DNA of 43,788 bases, taken from the IMG/VR virus record IMGVR_UViG_3300045988_166023. One strand, given 5' to 3'. Origin of the DNA: a virus. The notes beneath the pieces are model-generated. The model was not told the origin of the DNA and made no database searches. It was given only the letters and a program-made list of their open reading frames with translations. A program made the translations under genes and the position numbers. The number at the start of each line of letters is the position of its first letter. Within the stretch, counting starts at the first letter, position 1. Positions 1 to 43,788 of this stretch are shown here, piece after piece.

Positions 1-22
1 TAAATGGGAAGAGGAAAAATTA
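1..22 (+). repeat. Variant crossover-like site / inverted-repeat arm (partner 42473..42494); core TAAATGGGAAG
   Basis: The reverse complement of 1..22 matches 42473..42494 at 21/22 positions. Positions 1..11 differ from the shufflon core TAAATAGTAAG at 2 positions. Confidence 0.7.
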
Positions 23-119
23 TAACTTTGTCAAAGAAATTGTTGCGTAAATATTCTTAGTAGTAATTTTGAGAGTTTGATAATCAACCCAGGATACGAT
101 TCCTTCTAAATCCGACATA
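1..119. repeat. 119-bp direct terminal repeat, copy 1 (identical to 43670..43788)
   Basis: Base-by-base identity of 1..119 with 43670..43788. Confidence 0.97.
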
Positions 120-310
120 AATGGAGCGGTAAGTCCACTGCTCCCTTCGCCACTTCCAGCGACAATGATTGCCGCGCGAGTTCTTATGATATTTCCTCCT
201 GCAACTTCGGCGCAAGTTAATAAATAGCATTGTAGTTTATCTAATACATAGGTTTTTTCGGCATCCCTTGCTAGAAAACCATTTATGACTCTTTCACTAC
301 TTCTTCGTGT
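20..310 (-). CDS. Silent tail-fibre C-terminal cassette a' (96 codons plus stop, no start codon or SD)
   Basis: Hand translation of the minus strand from core 311..320, in the AAT-AGT-AAG frame, is open to TAA at 22..20: TRRSSERVINGF...KNIYATISLTKL. There is no ATG/RBS at its 5' end. Confidence 0.6.
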   Translation of the reverse strand, partial: TRRSSERVINGFLARDAEKTYVLDKLQCYLLTCAEVAGGNIIRTRAAIIVAGSGEGSSGLTAPFMSDLEGIVSWVDYQTLKITTKNIYATISLTKL

Positions 311-320
311 CTTACTATTT
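311..320 (-). repeat. Shufflon core site (CTTACTATTT = reverse complement of AAATAGTAAG)
   Basis: Exact 10-mer shared with 41406, 41677, 42223 (+) and 585, 846, 1123 (-). It contains the stop codon of cassette b'. Confidence 0.8.
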
Positions 321-584
321 AATGAAGATTTTTTTCCATGTATTACTGGACAAAGTTAATTTATTTCCTTCGATTGAAATATTAACGTCGCTAGTACTTG
401 AACAAACGATAGAGACATTACTTTTTCGTGTTTCAGCTGCTGTTATAACTGTATACATATTTGTTGTTGATGGGGATATATTATTATTGCTCAATCCTGC
501 TACAACAAGAAAATAACCAGTGTCGTATTTCAATTCAATAGTCAGCGTAACTCCCCCTTGGAGTACATACGTTTTGTAAAAACT
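315..584 (-). CDS. Silent tail-fibre C-terminal cassette b' (89 codons), paralog of expressed cassette A
   Basis: In frame with core 585..594. It ends ...SIEGNKLTLSSNTWKKIFIK, versus ...SIEGNKLTLCSTAWKKIFIK in 41206..41682. The only candidate start is a TTG with no SD. Confidence 0.7.
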   Translation of the reverse strand, partial: SFYKTYVLQGGVTLTIELKYDTGYFLVVAGLSNNNISPSTTNMYTVITAAETRKSNVSIVCSSTSDVNISIEGNKLTLSSNTWKKIFIK

Positions 585-594
585 CTTACTATTT
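585..594 (-). repeat. Shufflon core site (reverse complement of AAATAGTAAG)
   Basis: Exact 10-mer. It abuts the TAA stop of cassette c' (594..596). Confidence 0.8.
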
Positions 595-845
595 TATTCG
601 GCAGAGAAGTACTTCCAGTCTGACCAAGCATTGCTATTTCTTTTTCGGCGTATAGCAATCTTATCACTTCCGAAAGAAAAAGCAAGCTGGCAGTTAAAAG
701 CATTGTTCGGATTCTGTTGAATAACAATACACCCATTGCTGCCGAGACTTTCAGGAAGGCCAACGGGATTGACTGCTGTTCTCAATATTATTGCATTAGG
801 AGGACTATCTAAATCATTTATACCTGTCGCAACAATCTGAGAACC
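594..845 (-). CDS. Silent tail-fibre C-terminal cassette c' (83 codons)
   Basis: In frame with core 846..855 (…QNSK|GSQIVATG…). It ends ...NSNAWSDWKYFSAE, sharing the G/N-x-x-DW tail motif with cassettes C, D and d'. The track ORF 594..920 extends spuriously upstream of the core. Confidence 0.65.
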   Translation of the reverse strand, partial: GSQIVATGINDLDSPPNAIILRTAVNPVGLPESLGSNGCIVIQQNPNNAFNCQLAFSFGSDKIAIRRKRNSNAWSDWKYFSAE

Positions 846-855
846 CTTACTATTT
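846..855 (-). repeat. Shufflon core site (reverse complement of AAATAGTAAG)
   Basis: Exact 10-mer. It contains the TAG stop of cassette d' (850..852). Confidence 0.8.
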
Positions 856-1122
856 TGTCGCAATAGATTTCCAATCTCCGATATTACCATCAGCGATTTT
901 TCTTGTGTAGATGTTTCCATTTACGACTGCTATGCTCCATCCGTAATTGGCAGCATCCTTATACGTAAAAAGGACACCATTTCCTCTTTCGCCCGGCTGA
1001 CCGGGTACGCCATTTGAAAATCTTCTGATTGAAATAGTCCGAGGGGCGAATGTTTCGAAGTCTGCATTTAAATCGTCAGACGGTGTAAGGGTGTTATTTG
1101 AGTTTGCAGCAAGAGAAAAACT
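850..1122 (-). CDS. Silent tail-fibre C-terminal cassette d' (90 codons)
   Basis: In frame with core 1123..1132 (…SNSK|SFSLAAN…). It ends ...GNIYTRKIADGNIGDWKSIATK. The upstream extension of track ORF 850..1203 runs through a terminator hairpin and has no SD. Confidence 0.65.
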   Translation of the reverse strand, partial: SFSLAANSNNTLTPSDDLNADFETFAPRTISIRRFSNGVPGQPGERGNGVLFTYKDAANYGWSIAVVNGNIYTRKIADGNIGDWKSIATK

Positions 1123-1132
1123 CTTACTATTT
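1123..1132 (-). repeat. Shufflon core site (reverse complement of AAATAGTAAG), outermost on the left arm
   Basis: Exact 10-mer. It shares a 17-nt match (AAATAGTAAGAGTTTTT) with the site at 585. Confidence 0.8.
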
Positions 1133-1140
1133 GATATACG

Positions 1141-1167
1141 AAAAAACAGCTCCCACAGGAGCTGTTT
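1141..1167 (-). terminator. Rho-independent terminator (minus-strand polarity)
   Basis: Stem AAACAGCTCC / GGAGCTGTTT (1144..1153 / 1158..1167) with a 4-nt loop. On the minus strand the GC core is followed by TTTTTT. Confidence 0.6.
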
Positions 1168-1229
1168 GGAAATAAAAAAATATGACATATGAGAACAAGT
1201 CATGAATTAATAATAACACATTTCACATG

Positions 1230-1269
1230 ATACACAATGGTATTTATTGATACTATTGTGTATTTTTTT
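1230..1269 (+). terminator. 14-bp imperfect palindrome plus T7 run (terminator or operator) just upstream of the lysis cassette
   Basis: ATACACAATGGTAT (1230..1243), a 6-nt loop, ATACTATTGTGTAT (1250..1263), then TTTTTTT to 1269. Confidence 0.5.
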
Positions 1270-1291: not shown

Positions 1292-1816
1292 ATGAGAATA
1301 GTAGCAAACAAAAACAAGAACAGCAAAAAAAAATTCCCGTGGAGAATCGTGTTGGATAACGGAAGACAGATTCCGGTGCCAAGTCAGTACAATTTCAAAT
1401 CTTCGTTCATCAGGACTCATGGGTGTAGTCTGGTAGCTTTCTATATGGCGCTGCGATTCCGAGGCGTTAAGAAAAATATGCAGCAGTGCTTAAACTTCGC
1501 AAGAAAGAAATTGAAATGCGGAGCAAAGTATCCGCTTACGGAAATTTGCAAGGGCATTAATTTTATTTGCCCAGGCAAGCCAGCGACGTATTATAAGTCT
1601 TTGACAAATGCTCAACTGGAAGCAAAGCTGCGAAAGGGGTACATGATACTGTTTGAAGAGGGCAATCCGATTCATACTGTGGTCCTGCTCAAAGATAATA
1701 AGACGGGAAAGGTGTGGAGATTCTCGGACGGAAAAAAGAACGTAACAACAGTTGAAAAAGAAAATAAGAAAAAGTGTACAAACGAAAAGTACAGAGGAAT
1801 AGTAGTTGTAAAGTAG
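1292..1816 (+). CDS. Hypothetical protein, possible papain-fold (C39-like) Cys/His peptidase, first gene of the lysis cassette
   Basis: AAGGAGGTG SD lies upstream of the ATG. Motifs HGCSLVAFYMAL and NPIHTVVLL resemble the Cys and His boxes of C39-like peptidases. This assignment is weak. Confidence 0.6.
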   Translation: MRIVANKNKNSKKKFPWRIVLDNGRQIPVPSQYNFKSSFIRTHGCSLVAFYMALRFRGVKKNMQQCLNFARKKLKCGAKYPLTEICKGINFICPGKPATYYKSLTNAQLEAKLRKGYMILFEEGNPIHTVVLLKDNKTGKVWRFSDGKKNVTTVEKENKKKCTNEKYRGIVVVK

Positions 1817-3355: not shown

Positions 3356-4450
3356 CTATAAAATCTTAATATTGCGAATAGCATCATTATCCTTTGACCT
3401 CATTTTCTCAGTAACATGAAGGTAAATCTGCCTGGTAATATCACTATTTTCGTGTCCCAGTCTCCGACTGATAGTTTCGATATCTACACCTTGTTCTGCC
3501 AGAAGAGAGGTGTGGGTATGTCGGAGCATATGAGGATGCACATGCTTGTGCAATACATTTTTTGCAGTATTTCCAAGTGCGAAGCGGTAATTAGTTGGAC
3601 AGAGATGCTTGCCGCTTCGCTGAAATAGTAAATCAGTCTTATAAACAAACTGGTTCATCAAAGCGACTTTCTTTAACCGCTGGCAGAGCGGGAATAGTTC
3701 TGTTTGAATATAAATACGGCGGTTAGAGGATTTTGTTTTAGGGGTGTCTGTGGTTTTTACATTGTGGCTGTATGTAGAATTCACATAAATGTATCGCTGT
3801 TTTAAATCGATATCGGAAGCAGTAACAGATAATGCTTCCCCAAGTCGCATCCCTGTAAGTACCAGAAAATGGGTAAGATCACGATAATCATCTTTTCGAA
3901 TTGCAGGGAGAAGCTTAGCGACTTCCCAAGATTCTAGATATTTACTCGAAATGTTAGATGAATCCTCTTTTTCTTCTTTTTTTGTTCTCTGAAGTTTATC
4001 AAGATATTGAATATTATCTACATAATCATTCAAATATCCCCACTTCATAATGAGTTTAAAATATCTCAGATGGTTAACAGAACTTCCTTCTGGATAAATT
4101 ATCTGTTGTCGGATAAAATTTGCTGAAAAACTTGATACCAATGTATCATCCCCTAATAGCTTTACCACATTTCTGGCTTCACACTCATAAATGAAATAAG
4201 TTGTTGCTTTACATTCATGCTTTTTTACATCAAGCCATCGATCACAAAGTTCGCCCCAGGTAATATCTTTTATTGGTGCAACATTTAACCGACTATCAAT
4301 CTTGGCCACAAGTGCCCGTTGTGCCATTTTTCTCGCCTGGGCAGTATTCTTTTCAGTAGTGACGGAAACTTTTTTCGTTTTGCCTGTCACCGGGTCCTTG
4401 TAGCGTTCTACATGCTTATACTTACCGTTCTTTGTTTTCTCGGTCCACAT
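3356..4450 (-). CDS. int: Phage integrase, tyrosine recombinase family
   Basis: Catalytic motifs TGMRLGEAL, HMLRHTH and LGHENSDITRQIYLH, with an N-terminal MWTEKTKNGKYK arm-binding-type start. ATG 4450 has AAAGGA 8 nt upstream. The track ORF runs to 4519. Confidence 0.9.
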   Translation of the reverse strand: MWTEKTKNGKYKHVERYKDPVTGKTKKVSVTTEKNTAQARKMAQRALVAKIDSRLNVAPIKDITWGELCDRWLDVKKHECKATTYFIYECEARNVVKLLGDDTLVSSFSANFIRQQIIYPEGSSVNHLRYFKLIMKWGYLNDYVDNIQYLDKLQRTKKEEKEDSSNISSKYLESWEVAKLLPAIRKDDYRDLTHFLVLTGMRLGEALSVTASDIDLKQRYIYVNSTYSHNVKTTDTPKTKSSNRRIYIQTELFPLCQRLKKVALMNQFVYKTDLLFQRSGKHLCPTNYRFALGNTAKNVLHKHVHPHMLRHTHTSLLAEQGVDIETISRRLGHENSDITRQIYLHVTEKMRSKDNDAIRNIKIL

Positions 4451-4498
4451 ATAAATCATCCTTTCTTCTGTGTAAAAAAGGGTATAAAAAATACACCC

Positions 4499-4527
4499 TA
4501 TACAATTGTTAGGATGCATGGTATAAT
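4499..4527 (+). promoter_or_regulatory. Sigma-A-type promoter (TATACA, 17 nt spacer, extended -10 TGgTATAAT) divergent from int
   Basis: Read directly: -35 at 4499..4504; TG at 4519..4520; TATAAT at 4522..4527. Confidence 0.5.
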
Positions 4528-24878: not shown

Positions 24879-25454
24879 ATGAAAATGACATTTAAAGAAG
24901 CATTTGAAGCAATGAAACATGGAGCAAAGGTAAAACTTCCGGGATGGAACGGTTACTGGTGTTGGGATGACAAAAAACAGACGATTATGATTCATTGTAG
25001 ACCTAAAGATTCTGATGCAGGGCAGGGAGAAGTCCTTGATATCCGTGAAACACAGAGAGTAGAATATACTTTCATGCACACACAGAGAGACGATTGGACG
25101 ATTGCTGATGAAGAGAATTGTGGTGTTCTCGGCGGTCAGTCAACATTTGGATTTGGAGATGCTATCCGTTATCTGAAAAGAGGACTTAAGGTGGCACGTA
25201 AAGGTTGGAATGGTAAGAAGCAGTACATTCAGCTTGCTACTGGTATTTCTTATAAGACAGCAGATGGAGAAATTGTAAACTGTGAACATGATGCTATCGG
25301 AAACATGGCTATTTCATTTGTCGGAACATCAGGAGTGCAGATGGGATGGCTCGCAAGTCAGGCAGATATACTTGCAGAAGATTGGGTATTTGCAAATTGC
25401 GCCGGCACAATGAAAGGAGAAAGACATGATCATCACAGGAATGGCACACTTTGA
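24879..25454 (+). CDS. Tandem DUF2829-like protein (Tad2-like candidate anti-Thoeris sponge)
   Basis: Two internal repeats. Repeat 1: MTFKEAFEAMKHGAKVKLPGWNG...RDDWTIA. Repeat 2: FGFGDAIRYLKRGLKVARKGWNGKKQYI...WLASQADILAEDWVFA. Confidence 0.65.
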   Translation: MKMTFKEAFEAMKHGAKVKLPGWNGYWCWDDKKQTIMIHCRPKDSDAGQGEVLDIRETQRVEYTFMHTQRDDWTIADEENCGVLGGQSTFGFGDAIRYLKRGLKVARKGWNGKKQYIQLATGISYKTADGEIVNCEHDAIGNMAISFVGTSGVQMGWLASQADILAEDWVFANCAGTMKGERHDHHRNGTL

Positions 25455-33600: not shown

Positions 33601-35825
33601 GCAAAATCAGTGTTGATGAGGCAATAAATCAACTGCTTAGCGGTTCTGAAGAAAAAATGGCTAAGATTAAGAAGAATGTTGAAGATATTGGAAATGGCAA
33701 GATTAAAGGGATAAATACCTCAGCTTATACTTCATCGCTTAATACAGTGAGTCAGAAAGCAAAGAGTACTGCAAAAGATACGGATAAAAGCAACAAAGAG
33801 ATTAAGAAAAATAGTAAGTTAAAAGGTACTAACAATACAGCAGCGGCTAAACAGACCTATGGCGCATATAAAACAGAAGGCGAAAAAGCAAAGAATACTG
33901 TAAAGAAGACAGGAAAAGAGATTGGAAAAGGCGGAGCAACCAGTGCGGCTTCTACAACTTCGCAGTGGAAATCTGCTGGTAGTAAAAATGCTAAGTCATA
34001 TATTTCTGGCGTAGCATCCCAAAAAGGAGCGGCTCAAAAAGCAGGAAAAACGCTATCTACTTCTGCAAAGACAGGTGCAAGTTCCGGAAAAGCCGGATTT
34101 GTGTCGGCCGGAAGAAACATGGCCGCAGGCATCGCATCTGGTATTCATTCTGGTACTCCATTTGTAACAGCAGCGGCTAGAAGTGCGGTAAGAGCAGCGG
34201 TAAAGGCGGCACAAAAGGCAGGAGAAATTAAATCACCATCCAGGGTGATGAAAAATGAGGTCGGTAAATACCTACCTCTCGGCATGGCAGCTGGCATCAA
34301 GGATAATACCGATTCTGTAGTTAATGCATCAAGAGCAATGTGTGCCTCAGCTCTAACAGCTTCTGCAGATGAACTTGATATTCATTCTCCTTCTCGGAAG
34401 TTCAAGAACATTATCGGAAAGAATATCCCGAAAGGCATTGCAAAAGGTGTAAGAGAATCTAAAAGCGAGCTTGTCGGAGAAATGGAAAGTGTTGTGAACG
34501 AAGCACTTAGTGCGGCACAAAATGCTTCTAAAAATGGAAATTATTCTGAAATAGGAAGCAATCTGCTGTCTGGATTATCTACATCGCTGAGTACATCAAA
34601 GTCTCGTTCCTCTGAAACAATACAGGAAATTATTGATCAACAGCAAGAAAGTCTATCTAATGCCAATCAGAAGAAAGAAGAGGCACTTCAAAGTAAAATT
34701 GATAAGCTAGGAAGCAAAAAGGCAAACAAGAAGAGAAAAGCCGCCTTAAAGAAAAGGCTCAAGCAGATGAAAGCTGCAGATAAGAAACAGGAATCACAGC
34801 TTAAAACGTCTGGCGAAAAGGCGGCTGCAGCATATAATGATGCCTTTGAAAAGGAAGCTTCCCGTATTACTAAGATTGCAGAAAAGAAGATACAGGAATT
34901 ATCAGAAACCTATCAGACAAAGTATAACGATATCAAGAATAGGATGGACACTCTCACAGAAAAACAGCAGTCCTGGGGGAATGTTTATGATCTGAAACAG
35001 AATATTGCAGATATTAAGAGATATCAGGAAAATTTAAAAGCCCTTGAAGGCAGAATCCCAGAGTCAATGATGAATAAGATTCTTGGGATGAATATGGATG
35101 AAGCAACAGCTTATATGGACTGGTTCAGGGGAATGACAGCAACAGAGCAGAAAGCGTATTTGAACGATTGGAATGCTATTTATTCTTCTTCAGAAACTTT
35201 TTCAAAAAACTTTTTTACCGATGACTTTGCAAAGATTCAAAAGGAATATGAGTCTGAACTGAAAAAGGCAACAGATAATCTGTATACGGAGATGAACCAG
35301 ATTGGAGCAAACATTGCAAAAGGACTTACTGCAGGAATGGACAGTGAGTCGAGAAACCTTTCTAAAGCAATGAAGAAGATCTGTAACAATCTTATAAATA
35401 CTGCCAAAAAGGAGCTGAAAATAAAATCTCCATCAAGGGTATTTAAGCGGATTGGTGTTTATAACATACAAGGAGCCGAAAAGGGACATGAAGCAGAAGC
35501 TCCGCGACTTTACCGTCAGGTTGAAAATGTATCAGAGACCCTTGCAGAGCGTTTTGCAAAGGCAAACTTAAAAGTATCTCTTCCGGATATTGCAGGTCGA
35601 ACACAAGCGGCTTTATCGAGACAGGTATCAAAAGTATCTGCAAGTATTCAGCCTCAGCTTACAGCGGCACTGGCAGGAGATGCAGGTCAGACAATTTACA
35701 ATGGACCAGAAAAGATTGAGCTTGTGACTAATCTCGACGGACGAGAAATAGCAAGAACTTCTGTGCCTTATATTGATGCGTACTTAGGAAATATGGCAGC
35801 TAGAAAAGCAAGAGGGGGCGTTTAA
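30699..35825 (+). CDS. Tail tape measure protein (1708 aa)
   Basis: TP901-type TMP core (…AGMGEVQAISGASRKDLEALTNKAKEMGATTKFSATQASEGLKYMAMAGW…), TM-like Gly/Ala segments and long coiled coils. Confidence 0.9.
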   Translation: MSADGHIEIEVELNSEKAEKELDSLSKSLEKDTAQAAKKAESSVKRSVKQIETSAKQASKQTESSAKQAGQEVKNTASSASKQVIDSAKKAEEEVKKSSKRVTEEEKKQYKEREKTRESSKPESDPSKPYKESSEKATQYWTGAGSKIKSIVSTITAATGAGAVAAGTAAINAGKSFEAGMGEVQAISGASRKDLEALTNKAKEMGATTKFSATQASEGLKYMAMAGWNSQQMIDGLPGVMNLAAASGEDLGTVSDIVTDALTAMGLKASDSAHFADVLATAASSSNTNVAMMGETFKYAAPLAGTLGYNIEDLSQAIGLMANAGIKGSQSGTSLRSILTRLASPPSDAAKAMEKYGISIKNSDGSMKSLMEVMENMRDSLQGLPEDEKAAAASALGGQEAMSGLLAIINASESDFDNLSKAIDNASGAAQDQADIMNDNLQGALYELGSAAESAGIELYDNIKNPAKKAVRAAATEIRSLSTTIKDNGIEAIIPEETITTVKNLGTTAKAVGAGGLKVLGGAAQFAGENIQTVLPVAASLLTVVKGYTVVKTISTAFAETQVAMAGASTGMTILGTVVKLFTGEALAATTATGLLSGAIGVLANPIALAVVAGGALTAGMVAYTLTQKKSTTEADKFAQSCKKLKKEQDEVASSIRSMHKDNAKNVNDVKTQGVQADNLLSKLKSLIGVQEKDAGTKQQIKSTVQQLNDILPDLNLQYDEQKDKLNQSTAAIKRNIQALKEQAMAKAYQSGMESAAEKVAEAEVANQNATEKYTEALEKKNAAQEKFDKLEKEKGLGSGNKELAKAAEDLMKYEKSLQTTEKALDKSEKNLNAANKELTTYSDKFTTQTNYSDFLSNLDKLAKDAGIKAKKIPETVLENIKAGNYKAPTTGEDLKRLINLDGLIQQAQEAGVEIPQYLLQGISDGSINFQSAINQMNTLLDFSSAAEKAGISGKEIPEELAQSIMQGKISVDEAINQLLSGSEEKMAKIKKNVEDIGNGKIKGINTSAYTSSLNTVSQKAKSTAKDTDKSNKEIKKNSKLKGTNNTAAAKQTYGAYKTEGEKAKNTVKKTGKEIGKGGATSAASTTSQWKSAGSKNAKSYISGVASQKGAAQKAGKTLSTSAKTGASSGKAGFVSAGRNMAAGIASGIHSGTPFVTAAARSAVRAAVKAAQKAGEIKSPSRVMKNEVGKYLPLGMAAGIKDNTDSVVNASRAMCASALTASADELDIHSPSRKFKNIIGKNIPKGIAKGVRESKSELVGEMESVVNEALSAAQNASKNGNYSEIGSNLLSGLSTSLSTSKSRSSETIQEIIDQQQESLSNANQKKEEALQSKIDKLGSKKANKKRKAALKKRLKQMKAADKKQESQLKTSGEKAAAAYNDAFEKEASRITKIAEKKIQELSETYQTKYNDIKNRMDTLTEKQQSWGNVYDLKQNIADIKRYQENLKALEGRIPESMMNKILGMNMDEATAYMDWFRGMTATEQKAYLNDWNAIYSSSETFSKNFFTDDFAKIQKEYESELKKATDNLYTEMNQIGANIAKGLTAGMDSESRNLSKAMKKICNNLINTAKKELKIKSPSRVFKRIGVYNIQGAEKGHEAEAPRLYRQVENVSETLAERFAKANLKVSLPDIAGRTQAALSRQVSKVSASIQPQLTAALAGDAGQTIYNGPEKIELVTNLDGREIARTSVPYIDAYLGNMAARKARGGV

Positions 35826-39987: not shown

Positions 39988-41199
39988 ATGCAGACAGAAA
40001 ATACATATGTTGAAACCGATTTGGGCAATATTGCACTAAATCCCAGAGGCGAGTATTCGGGTGAGGCATCGTATGAGTATTTAGATACCGTTTCGTATAT
40101 GGGCGGCTCATATGTGTGTCTTGCAGAACTGACAAAAACCATCAGCGGAATTGCACCGGAAGAAGGCAAAAATACGGAACACTGGCAGATGCTGACCTTG
40201 CCGGGCGGATTAACGTCAGACTACATCGCAATGCATGACGATGTAGTCAACAAGGCAAAGCAGGTTGAAACATCCAGGGCGGCTGTAGAGCTGTCTCAGC
40301 AGGAAGTTGAAGACGCACAGGCAGATGTGAGCCAGATGCGGCAGGCTACGCAAGAAGCATCCGAGGAGGCTGCTGCAAGCCGGGACAGTGCGGCAGGCTA
40401 CGCTCGGTCAGCAGAGGCATCAAGGACGGCAGCAGCGGAATCTGAACAGAATATCAACGCGCAGGTAACTGGCTTTGATACACATGTTGCAGAGAAAATC
40501 TCTGCAGCAGAGTCGACAGTTGAAGAAGCGAGAAAAAAAGCTATTGATGCAATTACGACACAGCAGGATACGTCTACGAAAGCGGTTACAGATGAGGGAA
40601 CAACACAGACAAAAATGGTCGGAGGTGCAGGCAATACAGCAGTTAGTGCTGTAGCAAAACAACAGGCAGCATCCGTACAGGCGGTAGAAGATGCTGGGAC
40701 AGCACAGGTAACAGCAATTGAGAGTGCTGGTAATGAACAGATAACGGAAGTTAATAAAGCCGGCACTACGCAAGTGGAAAATGTTGAAGAAGCAGGAAAT
40801 CAGCAGAATGTAATCCTTACCGAAGCGGCAGCGCAGGAATTGATTAAGTTGCAGGAAGTCGCAAAACAGTTTGCCGAAGACCATGAGCAAATTGAGACGA
40901 ATAAAGGTAATATAACTACACTGACGGAGAAAAAAATCCAAGCGTGGTTTCCAGGAAAAACTACAGAGGATTCAACAATTACTACTAAAGAGAGTGCTTT
41001 AAGCGATACGGCAGGCAATACGATTCTTGACCTCGCAGGAAATGAGATCGGAACAACTGTTGAAGTAGTAGTTCCCAAACCCCCGTATTATTTGGGAGAC
41101 CTTTGGATAGCTGACGATGCAATATATATTTGTACAACAGCACAAGAAACAGGAAAATTTAGATTATTCGACTGGTTAAAGATTTTAGAAAGGAAGTAA
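39988..41199 (+). CDS. Tail fibre shaft protein with 11-residue A-G-x-x-Q repeats
   Basis: Ala/Glu/Thr/Gln-rich. It has phased repeats AVEDAGTAQVT / AIESAGNEQIT / EVNKAGTTQVE / NVEEAGNQQNV. It sits directly upstream of the variable tip gene. Confidence 0.6.
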   Translation: MQTENTYVETDLGNIALNPRGEYSGEASYEYLDTVSYMGGSYVCLAELTKTISGIAPEEGKNTEHWQMLTLPGGLTSDYIAMHDDVVNKAKQVETSRAAVELSQQEVEDAQADVSQMRQATQEASEEAAASRDSAAGYARSAEASRTAAAESEQNINAQVTGFDTHVAEKISAAESTVEEARKKAIDAITTQQDTSTKAVTDEGTTQTKMVGGAGNTAVSAVAKQQAASVQAVEDAGTAQVTAIESAGNEQITEVNKAGTTQVENVEEAGNQQNVILTEAAAQELIKLQEVAKQFAEDHEQIETNKGNITTLTEKKIQAWFPGKTTEDSTITTKESALSDTAGNTILDLAGNEIGTTVEVVVPKPPYYLGDLWIADDAIYICTTAQETGKFRLFDWLKILERK

Positions 41200-41205
41200 T
41201 AGATT

Positions 41206-41682
41206 ATGGCAAATTGGAAAGAATACACAACAAAAACGACACCAGAAGATGCAGATGAGATTGTGATTGCCGACACCAAGGCAAATGCAAATAAGAGAAC
41301 CCCATTCAGCGGATTATGGAACTGGATTGCAAATAAATTAGCAACTGCAGTAATCTCGCAGTTAGAGACTCAAAACAAGTCAATTATTCCGGCTCTCAAT
41401 GAATTAAATAGTAAGCGTCTTAGGGCATATACACTTAAAGCAAACTCTACTCTGACTATCGAATTAGAGTACGACACTTGTTATTTTCTTGTTACAACAG
41501 GAATAAGCAATAATGATATACCTCCTTTAACAACAAATGTGTATACAGTTACGGTAGCAGCCAAAACACGAAGCAGTGATGTCTCTATCATTCATTCGGA
41601 TATTAGCAACATCGAGGTTTCAATCGAAGGAAATAAATTAACTTTGTGTAGCACCGCATGGAAGAAAATCTTCATTAAATAG
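41206..41682 (+). CDS. Phase-variable tail-fibre tip protein: constant N-terminus (aa 1-70) currently fused to cassette A
   Basis: GAAAGGAAG SD. Codons 67-70, L-N-S-K (tta aat agt aag), contain the shufflon core at 41406..41415. The C-terminal 88 aa are paralogous to the inverted cassette b'. Confidence 0.8.
   Translation: MANWKEYTTKTTPEDADEIVIADTKANANKRTPFSGLWNWIANKLATAVISQLETQNKSIIPALNELNSKRLRAYTLKANSTLTIELEYDTCYFLVTTGISNNDIPPLTTNVYTVTVAAKTRSSDVSIIHSDISNIEVSIEGNKLTLCSTAWKKIFIK
41406..41415 (+). repeat. Shufflon core site AAATAGTAAG at the expression junction
   Basis: Exact 10-mer in frame inside the fibre gene, at the boundary between the constant and variable parts. Confidence 0.8.
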
Positions 41683-41686
41683 TAAG
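41677..41686 (+). repeat. Shufflon core site AAATAGTAAG
   Basis: Exact 10-mer. It contains the TAG stop of cassette A (41680..41682). Confidence 0.8.
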
Positions 41687-41974
41687 CCATTCATGATACG
41701 TCTTCCTGTGTCTGTAAGCTTGCAGGATACCATTGCCACAATATCAATTGATATTGCCGATGCTGAACGAGGTGTAATTATTCTCACTGGTCGTTTCGGT
41801 GGAGAAATTTATTTTTCCTCAATTATCAACTATGGCTCAACATGGGACGTAAAGCAGGTGGTCTTCGCCGGTAGCAACACCATTAAAAATGAGCAAAACA
41901 AAAAAGTTCTTACCATAACCAGCGCAAAAGCTATTTCCAGCAAATATGAGGTCAATGCACTATTGATTAAATAG
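41687..41974 (+). CDS. Silent tail-fibre C-terminal cassette B (95 codons)
   Basis: Open in the AAT-AGT-AAG frame of core 41677 (NSK|PFMIRLPVSV...NALLIK). There is no SD before the internal ATG 41693. Confidence 0.6.
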   Translation, partial: PFMIRLPVSVSLQDTIATISIDIADAERGVIILTGRFGGEIYFSSIINYGSTWDVKQVVFAGSNTIKNEQNKKVLTITSAKAISSKYEVNALLIK

Positions 41975-41978
41975 TAAT
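41969..41978 (+). repeat. Shufflon core site, variant AAATAGTAAT
   Basis: 9/10 match to the core. It contains the TAG stop of cassette B. Confidence 0.7.
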
Positions 41979-42224
41979 GCTGTACCTAAAAAGCTTTTGT
42001 TTGAACATACGTCAATCGAGGCAACTTATAAAGAAGCTAAAGTAGGGATAAGTTTTTGTAAAGCACAAGGAGCATCAGATTTTCCGCTTCCTAACCCATT
42101 AACATTAATAATTAACGTAAAGAGCGGGGAAGAATGGGGAATGCAATACGCATTGACTTCGGTAGGAAAAATCTTTACTCGTCCAGTTAACAATGGTGTT
42201 TTTACTGACTGGATTCAAGTTTAA
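41979..42224 (+). CDS. Silent tail-fibre C-terminal cassette C (81 codons)
   Basis: Open in the core frame (NSN|AVPKKLLFEHTS...GVFTDWIQV). There is no ATG or SD. Confidence 0.6.
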   Translation, partial: AVPKKLLFEHTSIEATYKEAKVGISFCKAQGASDFPLPNPLTLIINVKSGEEWGMQYALTSVGKIFTRPVNNGVFTDWIQV

Positions 42225-42232
42225 ATAGTAAG
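42223..42232 (+). repeat. Shufflon core site AAATAGTAAG
   Basis: Exact 10-mer overlapping the TAA stop of cassette C. Confidence 0.8.
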
Positions 42233-42475
42233 GCTACATCGAAGGTAATAACCGCTGAAAATCTTGAGAAGGAATTCGCAAATTTCCCGAGCAATAGTAT
42301 CTCTTTTTTACAGTGTCAAAGCGCTATTGATAATCCTCGAAAGGGAATGCTAGCTTTATGCATAAACTACAAAACTTCACCAGCTTGGGGTTTTCAATAT
42401 TTATTTTCGTATAGTAACATTTACTTTCGGAACATTGGGAATGGAACATTTGGCGATTGGCAACAAATCAAATAA
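42233..42475 (+). CDS. Silent tail-fibre C-terminal cassette D (80 codons; absent from the ORF track)
   Basis: Hand translation in the core frame: NSK|ATSKVITAENLEKEFANFPSNSISFLQCQSAIDNPRKGMLALCINYKTSPAWGFQYLFSYSNIYFRNIGNGTFGDWQQIK, then stop. It shares the G-x-F-x-DW tail with C, c' and d'. Confidence 0.6.
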   Translation, partial: ATSKVITAENLEKEFANFPSNSISFLQCQSAIDNPRKGMLALCINYKTSPAWGFQYLFSYSNIYFRNIGNGTFGDWQQIK

Positions 42476-42494
42476 ATTTTCCTCTTCCCATTTA
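42473..42494 (-). repeat. Variant crossover-like site / inverted-repeat arm (partner 43670..43691 = 1..22)
   Basis: TAAATTTTCCTCTTCCCATTTA matches the reverse complement of 1..22 at 21/22 positions. It contains CTTCCCATTTA, the reverse complement of TAAATGGGAAG. It starts at the stop codon of cassette D. Confidence 0.7.
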
Positions 42495-42517
42495 ATTGAT
42501 TTGTGAACAAAGCACTT

Positions 42518-42552: not shown

Positions 42553-43551
42553 ATGACTGAAATTGAGAAGATTCAGAGCAAAATTTTAATGAGAATGCAG
42601 GATGTTTTAGACAATGAGCAATTACAGAAACTTGAGAACGTATTAGTTCTGGAGTTTCACAACATTGAAGTAAAACAGGAATGTACAGATTTGGTAACTT
42701 CGGAGCGGCATTGGGAGAAAATACTTCGAACATTTCTGGCAAGCAAGAGGATCGAAAACTGTTCAGAAGGAACGCTGAAAAGTTATAATGATTGTGTAAC
42801 AAGATTAATAACAACACTGAATAAGAGACTACAGGATATAACAACAAATGATATCCGGTATTACTTAGCGATGTATCAAGAAACAAGGAAAATATCTATG
42901 AGCTACTTAGACACGATTAGACGATATCTGAGTAGCTTTTTCGCCTGGGTGTCTGATGAAGGGTATATTCAAAAAAACCCCATGAGACGATTGAAGAAAA
43001 TAAAGGTTCCGCAGACAATCAAAAAGCCTTTTACACAGGCAGAAATGGAGCACTTAAGATGCAGTGCGGAATGTCAGAGAGACATTGCGATAATGGAATT
43101 TCTATATTCGACAGCGGCACGTATAGGTGAAGTCATAAGGCTTAACAGAAGGGATATTAATTGGGAAGGGAAAGAGGTAATCATTTACGGTGAAAAGGGT
43201 AAGAAAGAAAGAAAGGTGTATTTGACAGATGAGTGTGCATATCACTTAAAAAAGTATCTGTTCGCACGAACGGATATGAATCCAGCTTTGTTCGTGAGCA
43301 ATAAGCAGCCACACAGCCGTTTGGGAAAGCAAGCAATACAGTCGATGTTGCGGACACTGGGAAAGAAGACAGGAATCCACGCTCATCCGCATAAATTCCG
43401 AAGGACACTTTTAACGGATGCCGGAAACAGAGGAATTCCACTGCAGGAAATCCAAGCCTATGCAGGTCACCAGAAACCAGATACAACGATGCTATATGTA
43501 ACGGTTAGCGAAGAAAATGTGAAAGCATCTTTTAGAAGATATATAGCCTGA
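42553..43551 (+). CDS. Tyrosine recombinase (XerC/D- or Rci-like), candidate shufflon invertase
   Basis: SAM-like N-domain. Catalytic residues lie in STAARIGEV (R), HPHKFRRT (H-x-x-R), GHQKPDTTMLY (H, Y). GGAGGTG SD lies 7 nt before ATG 42553. It sits between the two cassette arrays. Confidence 0.9.
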   Translation: MTEIEKIQSKILMRMQDVLDNEQLQKLENVLVLEFHNIEVKQECTDLVTSERHWEKILRTFLASKRIENCSEGTLKSYNDCVTRLITTLNKRLQDITTNDIRYYLAMYQETRKISMSYLDTIRRYLSSFFAWVSDEGYIQKNPMRRLKKIKVPQTIKKPFTQAEMEHLRCSAECQRDIAIMEFLYSTAARIGEVIRLNRRDINWEGKEVIIYGEKGKKERKVYLTDECAYHLKKYLFARTDMNPALFVSNKQPHSRLGKQAIQSMLRTLGKKTGIHAHPHKFRRTLLTDAGNRGIPLQEIQAYAGHQKPDTTMLYVTVSEENVKASFRRYIA

Positions 43552-43669
43552 CAAAATGATTCTATACAGATTTTTCAAACCGGCAGAAATGGCGGTTTAT
43601 TCTGCGTGTTTAAAAAGTGAGAGACTAGAAGGGAGAATAAGAGAAAATCAAGAAAATGAGGTGTTAAAC

Positions 43670-43788
43670 TAAATGGGAAGAGGAAAAATTATAACTTTGT
43701 CAAAGAAATTGTTGCGTAAATATTCTTAGTAGTAATTTTGAGAGTTTGATAATCAACCCAGGATACGATTCCTTCTAAATCCGACATA
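43670..43788. repeat. 119-bp direct terminal repeat, copy 2 (identical to 1..119)
   Basis: Base-by-base identity with 1..119. Confidence 0.97.

Follow-up and report, generated by a model that had tools for sequence, protein, structure and literature searches.

In the R64/IncI shufflon, reportedly described by Komano in 1999 (cited in PMC13418256), the tyrosine recombinase Rci works with seven sfx sites and four segments that carry C-termini of the pilV adhesin, and the rci gene lies outside the shufflon; we know of no second class of sites in that system. Among phages, the Rin shufflon of Bifidobacterium and Eggerthella lenta prophages has a tyrosine invertase, about five Rv cassettes and 11-bp rix sites (Mavrich et al. 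2018, PMC6109161; PMC8778435), and the crossover site of rix is TTCCCTAACCC (PMC6109161). Min of p15B, Gin of Mu and FRphi, and Cin of P1 switch the C-terminus of a tail fibre by site-specific inversion, Min having six crossover sites and many isomers, and the effect on host range has been shown experimentally for Mu, P1 and FRphi (PMC6109161, PMC13418256). BV01-like phages of Phocaeicola, a host in the Bacteroidota, carry a tail-fibre shufflon with three cassettes, six isoforms and the motif TGGGAGAACT, whose activity was shown by reads (PMC13596623). Here we describe a locus of a metagenome-assembled contig of 43,788 nt (IMG/VR record IMGVR_UViG_3300045988_166023; this whole stretch is called the window). 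Very likely, its positions 1-1132 are the inverted and silent one of the two arms of a shufflon that belongs to a temperate siphovirus with a circular genome. As judged from sequence comparison, there is a high probability that these 1.1 kb are one arm of an eight-cassette inversion switch built around its own recombinase gene, which would probably change the cell-surface receptor used by a phage of gut Anaerobutyricum.

The locus resembles Rin in being phage-encoded, in belonging to a temperate siphovirus of a gut Gram-positive host and in having a tyrosine-family candidate invertase. In both systems a constant N-terminal part of a (here putative) receptor-binding protein, called Rc in Rin, is joined to startless variable C-terminal cassettes (Rv) that are mutually very dissimilar, with a short asymmetric repeat of about 11 bp in between. 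However, rin lies at one end of its array and Rc at the other, whereas here the recombinase is central, inside the invertible DNA and accompanied by a second inverted pair of sites. Moreover, the site is TTCCCTAACCC there and AT.AAATAGTAA here, about five cassettes contrast with eight (up to 14 in relatives) in two mirror arms, and the host belongs to another phylum; by site and layout the locus stands outside the Rin family. With the R64 system the locus would share multiple inversion by a tyrosine recombinase on short asymmetric sites, the exchange of the C-termini of one adhesin-type gene and the persistence of direct sites that are not deleted, although the target is a conjugative pilus adhesin there and a phage tail protein here. 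Min, Gin and Cin are serine invertases with Fis-dependent enhancers and chaperone genes in their segments, unlike the present array, which has a tyrosine recombinase and no chaperone gene. The BV01-like system also belongs to a gut temperate phage, but its recombinase flanks the array, while here it is central. In integrons, each cassette is a complete gene with expression from Pc, and recombination at attC involves folded single strands. The present locus is similar to integrons in its tyrosine recombinase, its array of promoterless cassettes, the large shared pool and the fact that cassettes are more alike than the backbones of their carriers. It differs from them because gene fragments are fused in frame at a 12-nt core and because the IntI models score far under their cutoffs on the recombinase (TIGR02249, 67 bits vs. 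265; NF011946, 31 vs. 435). What is new here is the central recombinase, the second inverted site pair AAATGGGAAG, up to 14 cassettes in relatives and a large pool common to diverged phages. A literature search found no description of this shufflon family and nothing specific for Anaerobutyricum prophage inversion, which is not proof of absence.

The exact 10-mer AAATAGTAAG was found eight times in the window, with respect to 0.17 copies expected (sd 0.47), a number not attained in any of 100 shuffles. Of these copies, four are on the minus strand (311-1132), three on the plus strand (41406, 41677 and 42223) and one is inside the tape-measure gene. When one variant copy is included, the locus has four cores on the plus strand (41406-42232) and four on the minus strand (311-1132), that is, a repeat present in at least three copies, in both orientations and separating segments, as in a shufflon. 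The cores are the following.

41406-41415, plus strand: core s1, the last 10 nt of the constant part
41677-41686, plus strand: core s2, which holds the TAG stop of cassette A
41969-41978, plus strand: core s3, a G->T variant, AAATAGTAAT
42223-42232, plus strand: core s4, an exact copy
1123-1132, minus strand: core s5, the outer boundary of the shufflon; in the related locus L006 the fixed right flank joins A' here, not d'
846-855, minus strand: core s6, an exact copy
585-594, minus strand: core s7, an exact copy
311-320, minus strand: core s8, which reads CTTACTATTT on the plus strand

The extended core consists of 12 nt, AT.AAATAGTAA, with the codons AAT AGT AAG inside. In one reading frame the core provides TAG and TAA, which end the preceding cassette. 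The copy inside the tape-measure gene (33809-33818, plus strand) is an exact core without the AT. prefix that is typical of real sites. If this copy recombined with the minus-strand cores, the tail genes would be inverted; it is presumably a chance occurrence that is not used.

The cores delimit the constant part of one gene and the eight cassettes listed below, where the primes mark the inverted arm and the P numbers are proteins in which the cassette is fused to the constant part elsewhere.

41206..41415, plus strand: constant N-terminal part, 70 amino acids (aa), ending in ..NELNSK, with its own ATG and Shine-Dalgarno (SD) sequence; part of the small, 158-aa tail-tip gene 41206..41682
41416..41682, plus strand: cassette A, 88 aa, the C-terminus expressed in this assembly; stop TAG within s2
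41687-41974, plus strand: cassette B, silent; P0062
41979-42224, plus strand: cassette C, silent; P0063
42233-42475, plus strand: cassette D, silent, terminal (no core after it); P0107
20..310, minus strand: cassette a', 96 aa, startless, terminal in the left arm; stop TAA at 22..20; P0026 (100%/100%) and four others
315..584, minus strand: cassette b', 89 aa; stop TAG within s8; P0007 and others (100%)
594..845, minus strand: cassette c', 83 aa; stop TAA at 596..594; P0069 (90%), and DNA 100% identical in L006
850..1122, minus strand: cassette d', 90 aa, outermost of the left arm; stop TAG within s6; P0046 (100%)

Of the eight cassettes (80-96 codons), A-D point in the direction of the gene and a'-d' in the opposite one. 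An earlier note, made on the letters of this DNA, had read d' (1122..850), c' (845..594), b' (584..315) and a' (310..20) as open in the frame of the core, and translation gave the same frames and the same ends. Behind each left-arm core, 83-96 codons are open, counted from the codon after the core, and a' indeed has 96 uninterrupted codons and no start. The first Met is codon 65 in a' and codon 43 in b', and c' and d' contain none. In the silent cassettes no start codon was found with an SD match above 4/6, as compared to 5/6 at the real start at 41206. The resemblance of b' to A, which the note had put at about 60%, was measured as 61% protein identity (81% in DNA over 242 nt), while the other cassette pairs are 13-37% identical. 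Cassettes A, b and a belong to the largest cassette family; C, D, c and d have a common C-terminal ..G.[FW].DW..I motif. The note had also ascribed the excess length of two open reading frames (ORFs) to an out-of-frame stretch of the upstream cassette. This applies to 594..920, which is lengthened by such a stretch of d', but not to 850..1203, the upstream part of which is intergenic spacer with the hairpin 1167..1144.

A search with the recombinase encoded between the two arms returned 79 IMG/VR loci and one contig of a metagenome-assembled genome (MAG), at 63-99% protein identity. The set of related loci comprises about 90 (L001-L092) besides the window, and their cores were scored by the open codons that follow them. 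In the window and the related loci, the fusion frame stays open for at least 70 codons after 262 of 293 cores (89%), with a median of 86 open codons as compared to 8 in the other two frames. Relatives with segments that carry their own starts and lack the cores, or that are broken by stops and frameshifts, had been named in advance as evidence against the arrangement; instead, orthologous cassettes keep their cores, have no starts and stay open. In all loci with the AAATAGTAA core, plus cores lie to the left of the recombinase and minus cores to the right, with few stray exceptions and with 0 to 12 cores per arm. The total of cassettes per locus ranges from 8 to 14. Altogether, clustering of 276 cassettes at 85% identity gave 156 clusters, BLAST grouped them into 87 families, and 36 of the 61 multi-member clusters were found on both arms. 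When the locus was compared by blastn with GenBank phages, a single weak partial hit was obtained.

The cassettes were also found in the expressed position in other assemblies. A protein search with the constant part plus cassette A gave 240 hits, many of which are 93-100% identical over the first 44-46% of the query only and then diverge. Across 28 aligned homologues, residues 1-69 are near-invariant and the similarity drops abruptly past NELNS[K/N]. When the eight cassettes were compared by BLAST with the best 120 of the 240 hits, every one of them was found fused at residue 71, after ..NELNSK. The locus has, in other words, the constant N-terminus and the startless C-terminal segments, in frame at a repeat, that characterize a shufflon: 8/8 cassettes are open and 8/8 are fused elsewhere. 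A further protein, P0079, in which the constant part carries another cassette, is encoded on 22 contigs.

Where the window is homologous to close relatives, the blocks of similarity begin and end at cores. In L006 the constant part is followed by a core and cassette a, and A' adjoins the fixed right flank; in L005, C is on the left arm and c' and b' are on the right; in L007, c and a are on the left. The junction between the constant part and a that the window predicts (an 80-mer made of the left half at s1 and the start of a') was found with 80/80 matches in L084, a Logan assembly of SRR33937422, and with 77/80 in L006. The junction of the constant part with d was found with 74/80 matches in L081-L083, and the reciprocal junction of A' with the flank is present in L006. 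In the prophage L081, the constant part is followed by d, in the expressed slot, and then by c, which is the mirror of the left arm of the window.

Signs of recent rearrangement come from eight loci of a sister phage (L085-L092), and the shufflon appears to be very active. Over 4.3 kb of tail genes these loci are 99.98-100.00% identical between samples and gap-free, yet they show four cassette orders. For instance, L085 reads A B C D E F G, recombinase, H' I' J' K' L' M' N', whereas L086 reads A J B K G, recombinase, H' D' F' E' I' L' C' M' N'. A path search in which only centre-spanning inversions were allowed found that the shortest path from L085 to L086 takes eight of them, and none within six.

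The earlier note had missed that the recombinase lies inside the invertible region and has its own second inverted pair of sites. The features of this central module are as follows.

42553..43551, plus strand: Xer-like tyrosine recombinase, 332 aa, candidate shufflon invertase (Pfam Phage_integrase, 1.8e-30, and SAM_4)
42472..42497, minus strand: site t1, a 26-nt inverted-repeat arm with AAATGGGAAG, 56 nt upstream of the recombinase ATG
43667..43692 (= window 1-23 across the overlap of the contig ends), plus strand: site t2, the inverted partner of t1, about 115 nt past the recombinase stop

With 42553..43551 the locus also has the site-specific recombinase gene of a shufflon. By its NCBIfam scores (XerA 203.6 vs. 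a cutoff of 220, XerC 136 vs. 335, XerD 126 vs. 330) the protein is classed as Xer-like and not as a XerA, XerC or XerD equivalog. The nearest solved structure is that of a XerC-like protein (PDB 4a8e, 3e-29), and stretches that would fit the tyrosine-recombinase signature (ARIGE, HKFRR, GHQK and MLY) are legible by eye in the translation. Related recombinases are 96-99% identical as proteins, while third codon positions are 55-65% identical in the more diverged pairs, and the ratio of nonsynonymous to synonymous substitution rates (dN/dS) is 0.047, values that indicate very strong purifying selection. In every related locus with the AAATAGTAA core, the gene is inside the array, between plus and minus cores. 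In the lineage whose recombinase is about 75% identical (L043-L054, L062), the core is AAATAGCAA, a synonymous Ser change present in up to 13 copies per locus. The core therefore changes along with the recombinase lineage, that is, enzyme and site co-vary. The phage also has a separate lysogeny integrase, and thus the central recombinase is not its sole integrase-family enzyme. A serine invertase elsewhere in the genome was considered as the enzyme and dropped, since the ten other mid-size ORFs scanned have no serine recombinase/resolvase domain (the remaining ORFs were outside that scan). In the GenBank phage collection, the best hits of the recombinase are at most 41% identical and come from uncultured faecal contigs; the best isolate-phage relative is that of Clostridium phage phiCs5676-1 (32%), where no comparable array is annotated (repeats were not searched for).

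The 17-mer that t1 and t2 have in common was found against an expectation of 0, and AAATGGGAAG differs from the cassette core at positions 5 and 7. Relatives have it at the same distances from the recombinase gene: 60-71 nt separate it from the ATG on one side and about 110-130 nt from the stop on the other, and the equivalents of other lineages are 42-84 nt before the ATG. Among the relatives in which both flanks could be examined, lineage-specific versions of the second site are TAAACAGGAGT, ATGAAATAGGGAG, GAAATCGGAG and AAAATAGTGA. The flank of the second site that faces the recombinase is constant, and the distal flank moves with the terminal cassette. Cassette a always adjoins the recombinase, on either side of it (6 loci), and terminal cassettes swap sides exactly at the second site. 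Core-to-core inversions alone cannot place a terminal cassette on either side of the recombinase, whereas an exchange at the second pair can. The second sites are probably heterospecific recombination sites, at which the 1.2-kb recombinase module would flip alone. Recombination of a cassette core with a second site on the same arm was dropped from consideration, as it would leave inverted cassettes within an arm, and these were seen only as the few stray cores.

In the mechanism that we propose, the Xer-like recombinase would pair a plus core with a minus core and invert all the DNA between them, so that another cassette is put in frame behind the constant part. Each cassette ends at a stop in, or just before, the next core, and a series of inversions could make any of the eight the expressed one. 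The swap would alter the distal beta-domain and hence probably the specificity of adsorption. In the AlphaFold2 (AF2) models, built on family alignments, a long helix (residues 35-67/69) of low confidence in the monomer precedes a confident beta domain that coincides with the cassette. The domain of cassette A (residues 71-158) has eight strands and a predicted local distance difference test (pLDDT) score of 76-92 per 10-residue block, and that of d scores 78-91. Foldseek neighbours are phage tailspikes, T4 gp9, phi812 baseplate proteins, the C-termini of R-type pyocin fibres and many tail-fibre proteins of BFVD; the match to pyocin fibre C-termini has a root-mean-square deviation of 2.3-2.5 A over about 93 columns, and the top hits of cassette d are phage baseplate and pyocin fibre proteins. 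These models support a tail-fibre or baseplate identity of the 158-aa protein, with no claim to a specific receptor-binding fold, and the variable domain is presumed to be trimeric and receptor-binding.

Some of the results weigh against this switch, or at least against its simplest form. A single centre-spanning inversion would flip the recombinase, yet in the lineage of the window the gene is co-directional with the tail/lysis backbone in 21 of 21 informative loci (16 distinct arrangements), and therefore the one-step inversion model is incomplete for the window phage. The fixed orientation could arise from a core-to-core event followed by a flip at the second sites, with bias or selection, from concerted exchanges, or from excision and reinsertion. 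In addition, four cassettes of L085 are missing from L089, which has a different, new terminal cassette, although the two share 99.98% identity over the 4.3 kb of tail genes that precede the array. This loss and gain means that other processes act besides inversion. As indirect hints on whether the enzyme would invert between inverted sites and not delete between direct ones, long arrays of direct repeats have persisted, but L089 has lost cassettes. The mirror-image layout had been read in the earlier note as what an inversion-based switch needs; the fusions, the breakpoints at cores, the predicted 80/80 junction and the permuted orders uphold this reading of the left arm, whereas the picture of one inversion has to be amended for the recombinase that is never flipped in this lineage and for the gain and loss of cassettes.

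Both of these observations would suit an integron-like array, in which the recombinase would mainly cut cassettes out as circles, between direct repeats, and insert them again at other cores of the same genome or of a co-infecting phage, so that moves between arms and changes of order would not be due to large inversions, since cassettes switch arms in the window lineage while the orientation of the recombinase is fixed. The range of cassette totals speaks for the same process, as does the exchange of cassettes between phages. In fact, the window and L006 have six cassettes in common that are 94.5-100% identical in DNA, as compared to 83% for the constant gene region, 82% for the recombinase and 78% for the right flank, and in general cassettes 95-100% identical in DNA are found on backbones only 77-93% identical. 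Cassettes being far more alike than backbones, they must have spread between diverged backbones. In L001-L008, L081 and L084 the backbone is old and the cassettes are recently shared (recombinase genes 81-93% and cassettes 95-100% identical in DNA). However, terminal cassettes, which have a core on one side only, sit on either side of the recombinase, and excision between direct repeats cannot bring this about. In the lineage with the approximately 75% identical recombinase, the two orientations occur in a ratio of 7:9, the gene being flipped in 9 of 16 loci as centre-spanning inversion predicts. Arrays of up to 12 direct cores persist, which means that deletion is rare, as with Rci, and the integron-integrase models remain far from their cutoffs. 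We regard the integron-like array as unlikely, although it and the inversion mode are not mutually exclusive. A joint scheme can be put forward tentatively, on somewhat less than even terms. It would combine a separately invertible recombinase module, with heterospecific AAATGGGAAG sites re-invented in each lineage, and a pool of more than 150 cassette types shared horizontally at the cores in an integron-like manner; the module would keep or reset the orientation of the recombinase and maybe make its own expression orientation-dependent.

The remaining points against the inversion switch concern the tail-tip protein and its cassettes. No Pfam, PHROGs or NCBIfam family was found for the 158-aa protein, nor for its neighbours 39988..41199 and 1292..1816. 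The structural search, which the earlier note had proposed as a check, gave matches to phage tail proteins that are consistent but weak (Foldseek TM-scores of about 0.35-0.45) and may reflect tailspike anchor domains rather than receptor-binding ones. The dN/dS comparison, proposed there as well, gave high and not low values for the cassettes (0.67 overall and about 1-2 for a, b and c, vs. 0.047 for the recombinase), which taken alone fits relaxed constraint. Because the frames stay open, we read this as diversifying or relaxed selection on a surface that interacts with the host, and not as decay.

The same values near 1 for a, b and c would be expected if the cassettes were static relics of duplication and of lineage-specific homologous recombination, with a recombinase that is, for instance, a second integrase or a dimer resolvase. 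The Xer-like character of the enzyme agrees with this possibility, and so does the fact that the support for switching comes from comparison, not from reads; that switching takes place within one population and is catalysed by this recombinase is what we infer. Against such relics stand the four orders on backbones identical over 4.3 kb and the breakpoints, which fall exactly at a core of 10-12 nt, too short for homologous recombination. Furthermore, 89% of the cassette frames are open despite the lack of starts, each cassette is seen somewhere as an expressed fusion, contigs break at the sites (see below), and the recombinase is always within the array and under strong purifying selection. 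A static array of relics is considered very improbable.

The genome is a circle of 43,669 bp, the ends of the contig overlapping by 119 bp (1-119 identical to 43670-43788). Independent contigs cross this junction without a break: L041 and L042 match the window from 42736 to 597, and L081 matches it from 42476 to 23. Because these contigs run across it, the 119-bp repeat is an assembly overlap, as the earlier note had argued from the reading of a' through it, and not a genome end. It could be asked whether the mirror arms and the read-through at the overlap come from a chimeric or mis-circularised metagenomic assembly, given that the window is a metagenome contig with a 119-bp overlap and that its break (position 1 / 43670) is exactly the first base of the inverted-repeat arm 3' of the recombinase gene. 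However, the same path from the recombinase through a' and b' to the flank is present in L041 and L042, the continuity between recombinase and cassettes is present in L081 and L084, and related contigs with the same two arms come from many samples and assemblers. An artefact of this kind is extremely improbable. Among the related contigs, 14 of 48 truncated ends are within 150 nt of a site, several of them within 15 nt. This suggests that contig ends at sites are branch points of the assembly graph, due to mixed arrangements within samples.

On the circle, the genes for tape-measure, Dit, Tal and three unassigned tail proteins are followed by the 158-aa gene (41206..41682), cassettes B, C and D, the tyrosine recombinase (42553..43551), the inverted a', b', c' and d', a terminator region, a conserved 174-aa ORF, the holin and GH25 lysin genes, and then the lysogeny integrase (3359..4519, minus strand) and a CI-like repressor. 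Scans of the locus for promoters and terminators yielded no more than shuffled sequences did, except for two hairpins.

1144..1167, minus strand: terminator-like hairpin just upstream of s5 in the reading direction of the cassettes (consensus scan)
1229-1264, plus strand: terminator-like hairpin between s5 and the 174-aa ORF 1292..1816

The minus-strand hairpin (1167..1144) may shield the silent arm from transcription arriving from the right. Away from the locus, between the portal/head-morphogenesis genes and the scaffold gene, a 191-aa ORF (24879-25454, plus strand) contains a Tad2-like anti-Thoeris domain (Pfam PF11195, 1.8e-25, two stretches) and is a candidate anti-defence gene.

The host was deduced from the prophage L081. 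Its recombinase is 98.8% identical to that of the window at the protein level, its cassettes d and C are 100% identical, and the cytX gene in its flank is 100% identical to CytX of Anaerobutyricum soehngenii. The near-identical prophage in this species makes Anaerobutyricum the probable host genus, and the GC content of the window (33-43%) fits a Lachnospiraceae host. The sole hit among GTDB species representatives (L080, CAVBVT010000014.1) would point to an Eggerthellaceae host. This was rejected on account of the low GC of the window and the flank of L081, and the MAG contig L080 is probably mis-binned.

The locus explains the assembly breaks observed here, as well as the cassettes that gene calling misses or over-extends. 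It is also compact: with one tyrosine recombinase of 332 aa, a 12-nt core and the apparently orthogonal sites AAATAGTAA, AAATAGCAA and AAATGGGAAG, it is a candidate tool for multiplexed inversion, which, according to PMC11852207, relied until recently on Rci as a single enzyme. It represents a natural test case for the way in which heterology between sites partitions recombination reactions. Little is known of how the phages of Anaerobutyricum, a major producer of butyrate in the human gut, choose their hosts. If the inversion switch is true, one temperate phage has eight alternative tail tips and its relatives up to 14, out of a pool that comprises at least 156 types of cassette in about 90 loci, which is far above the phage shufflons described.

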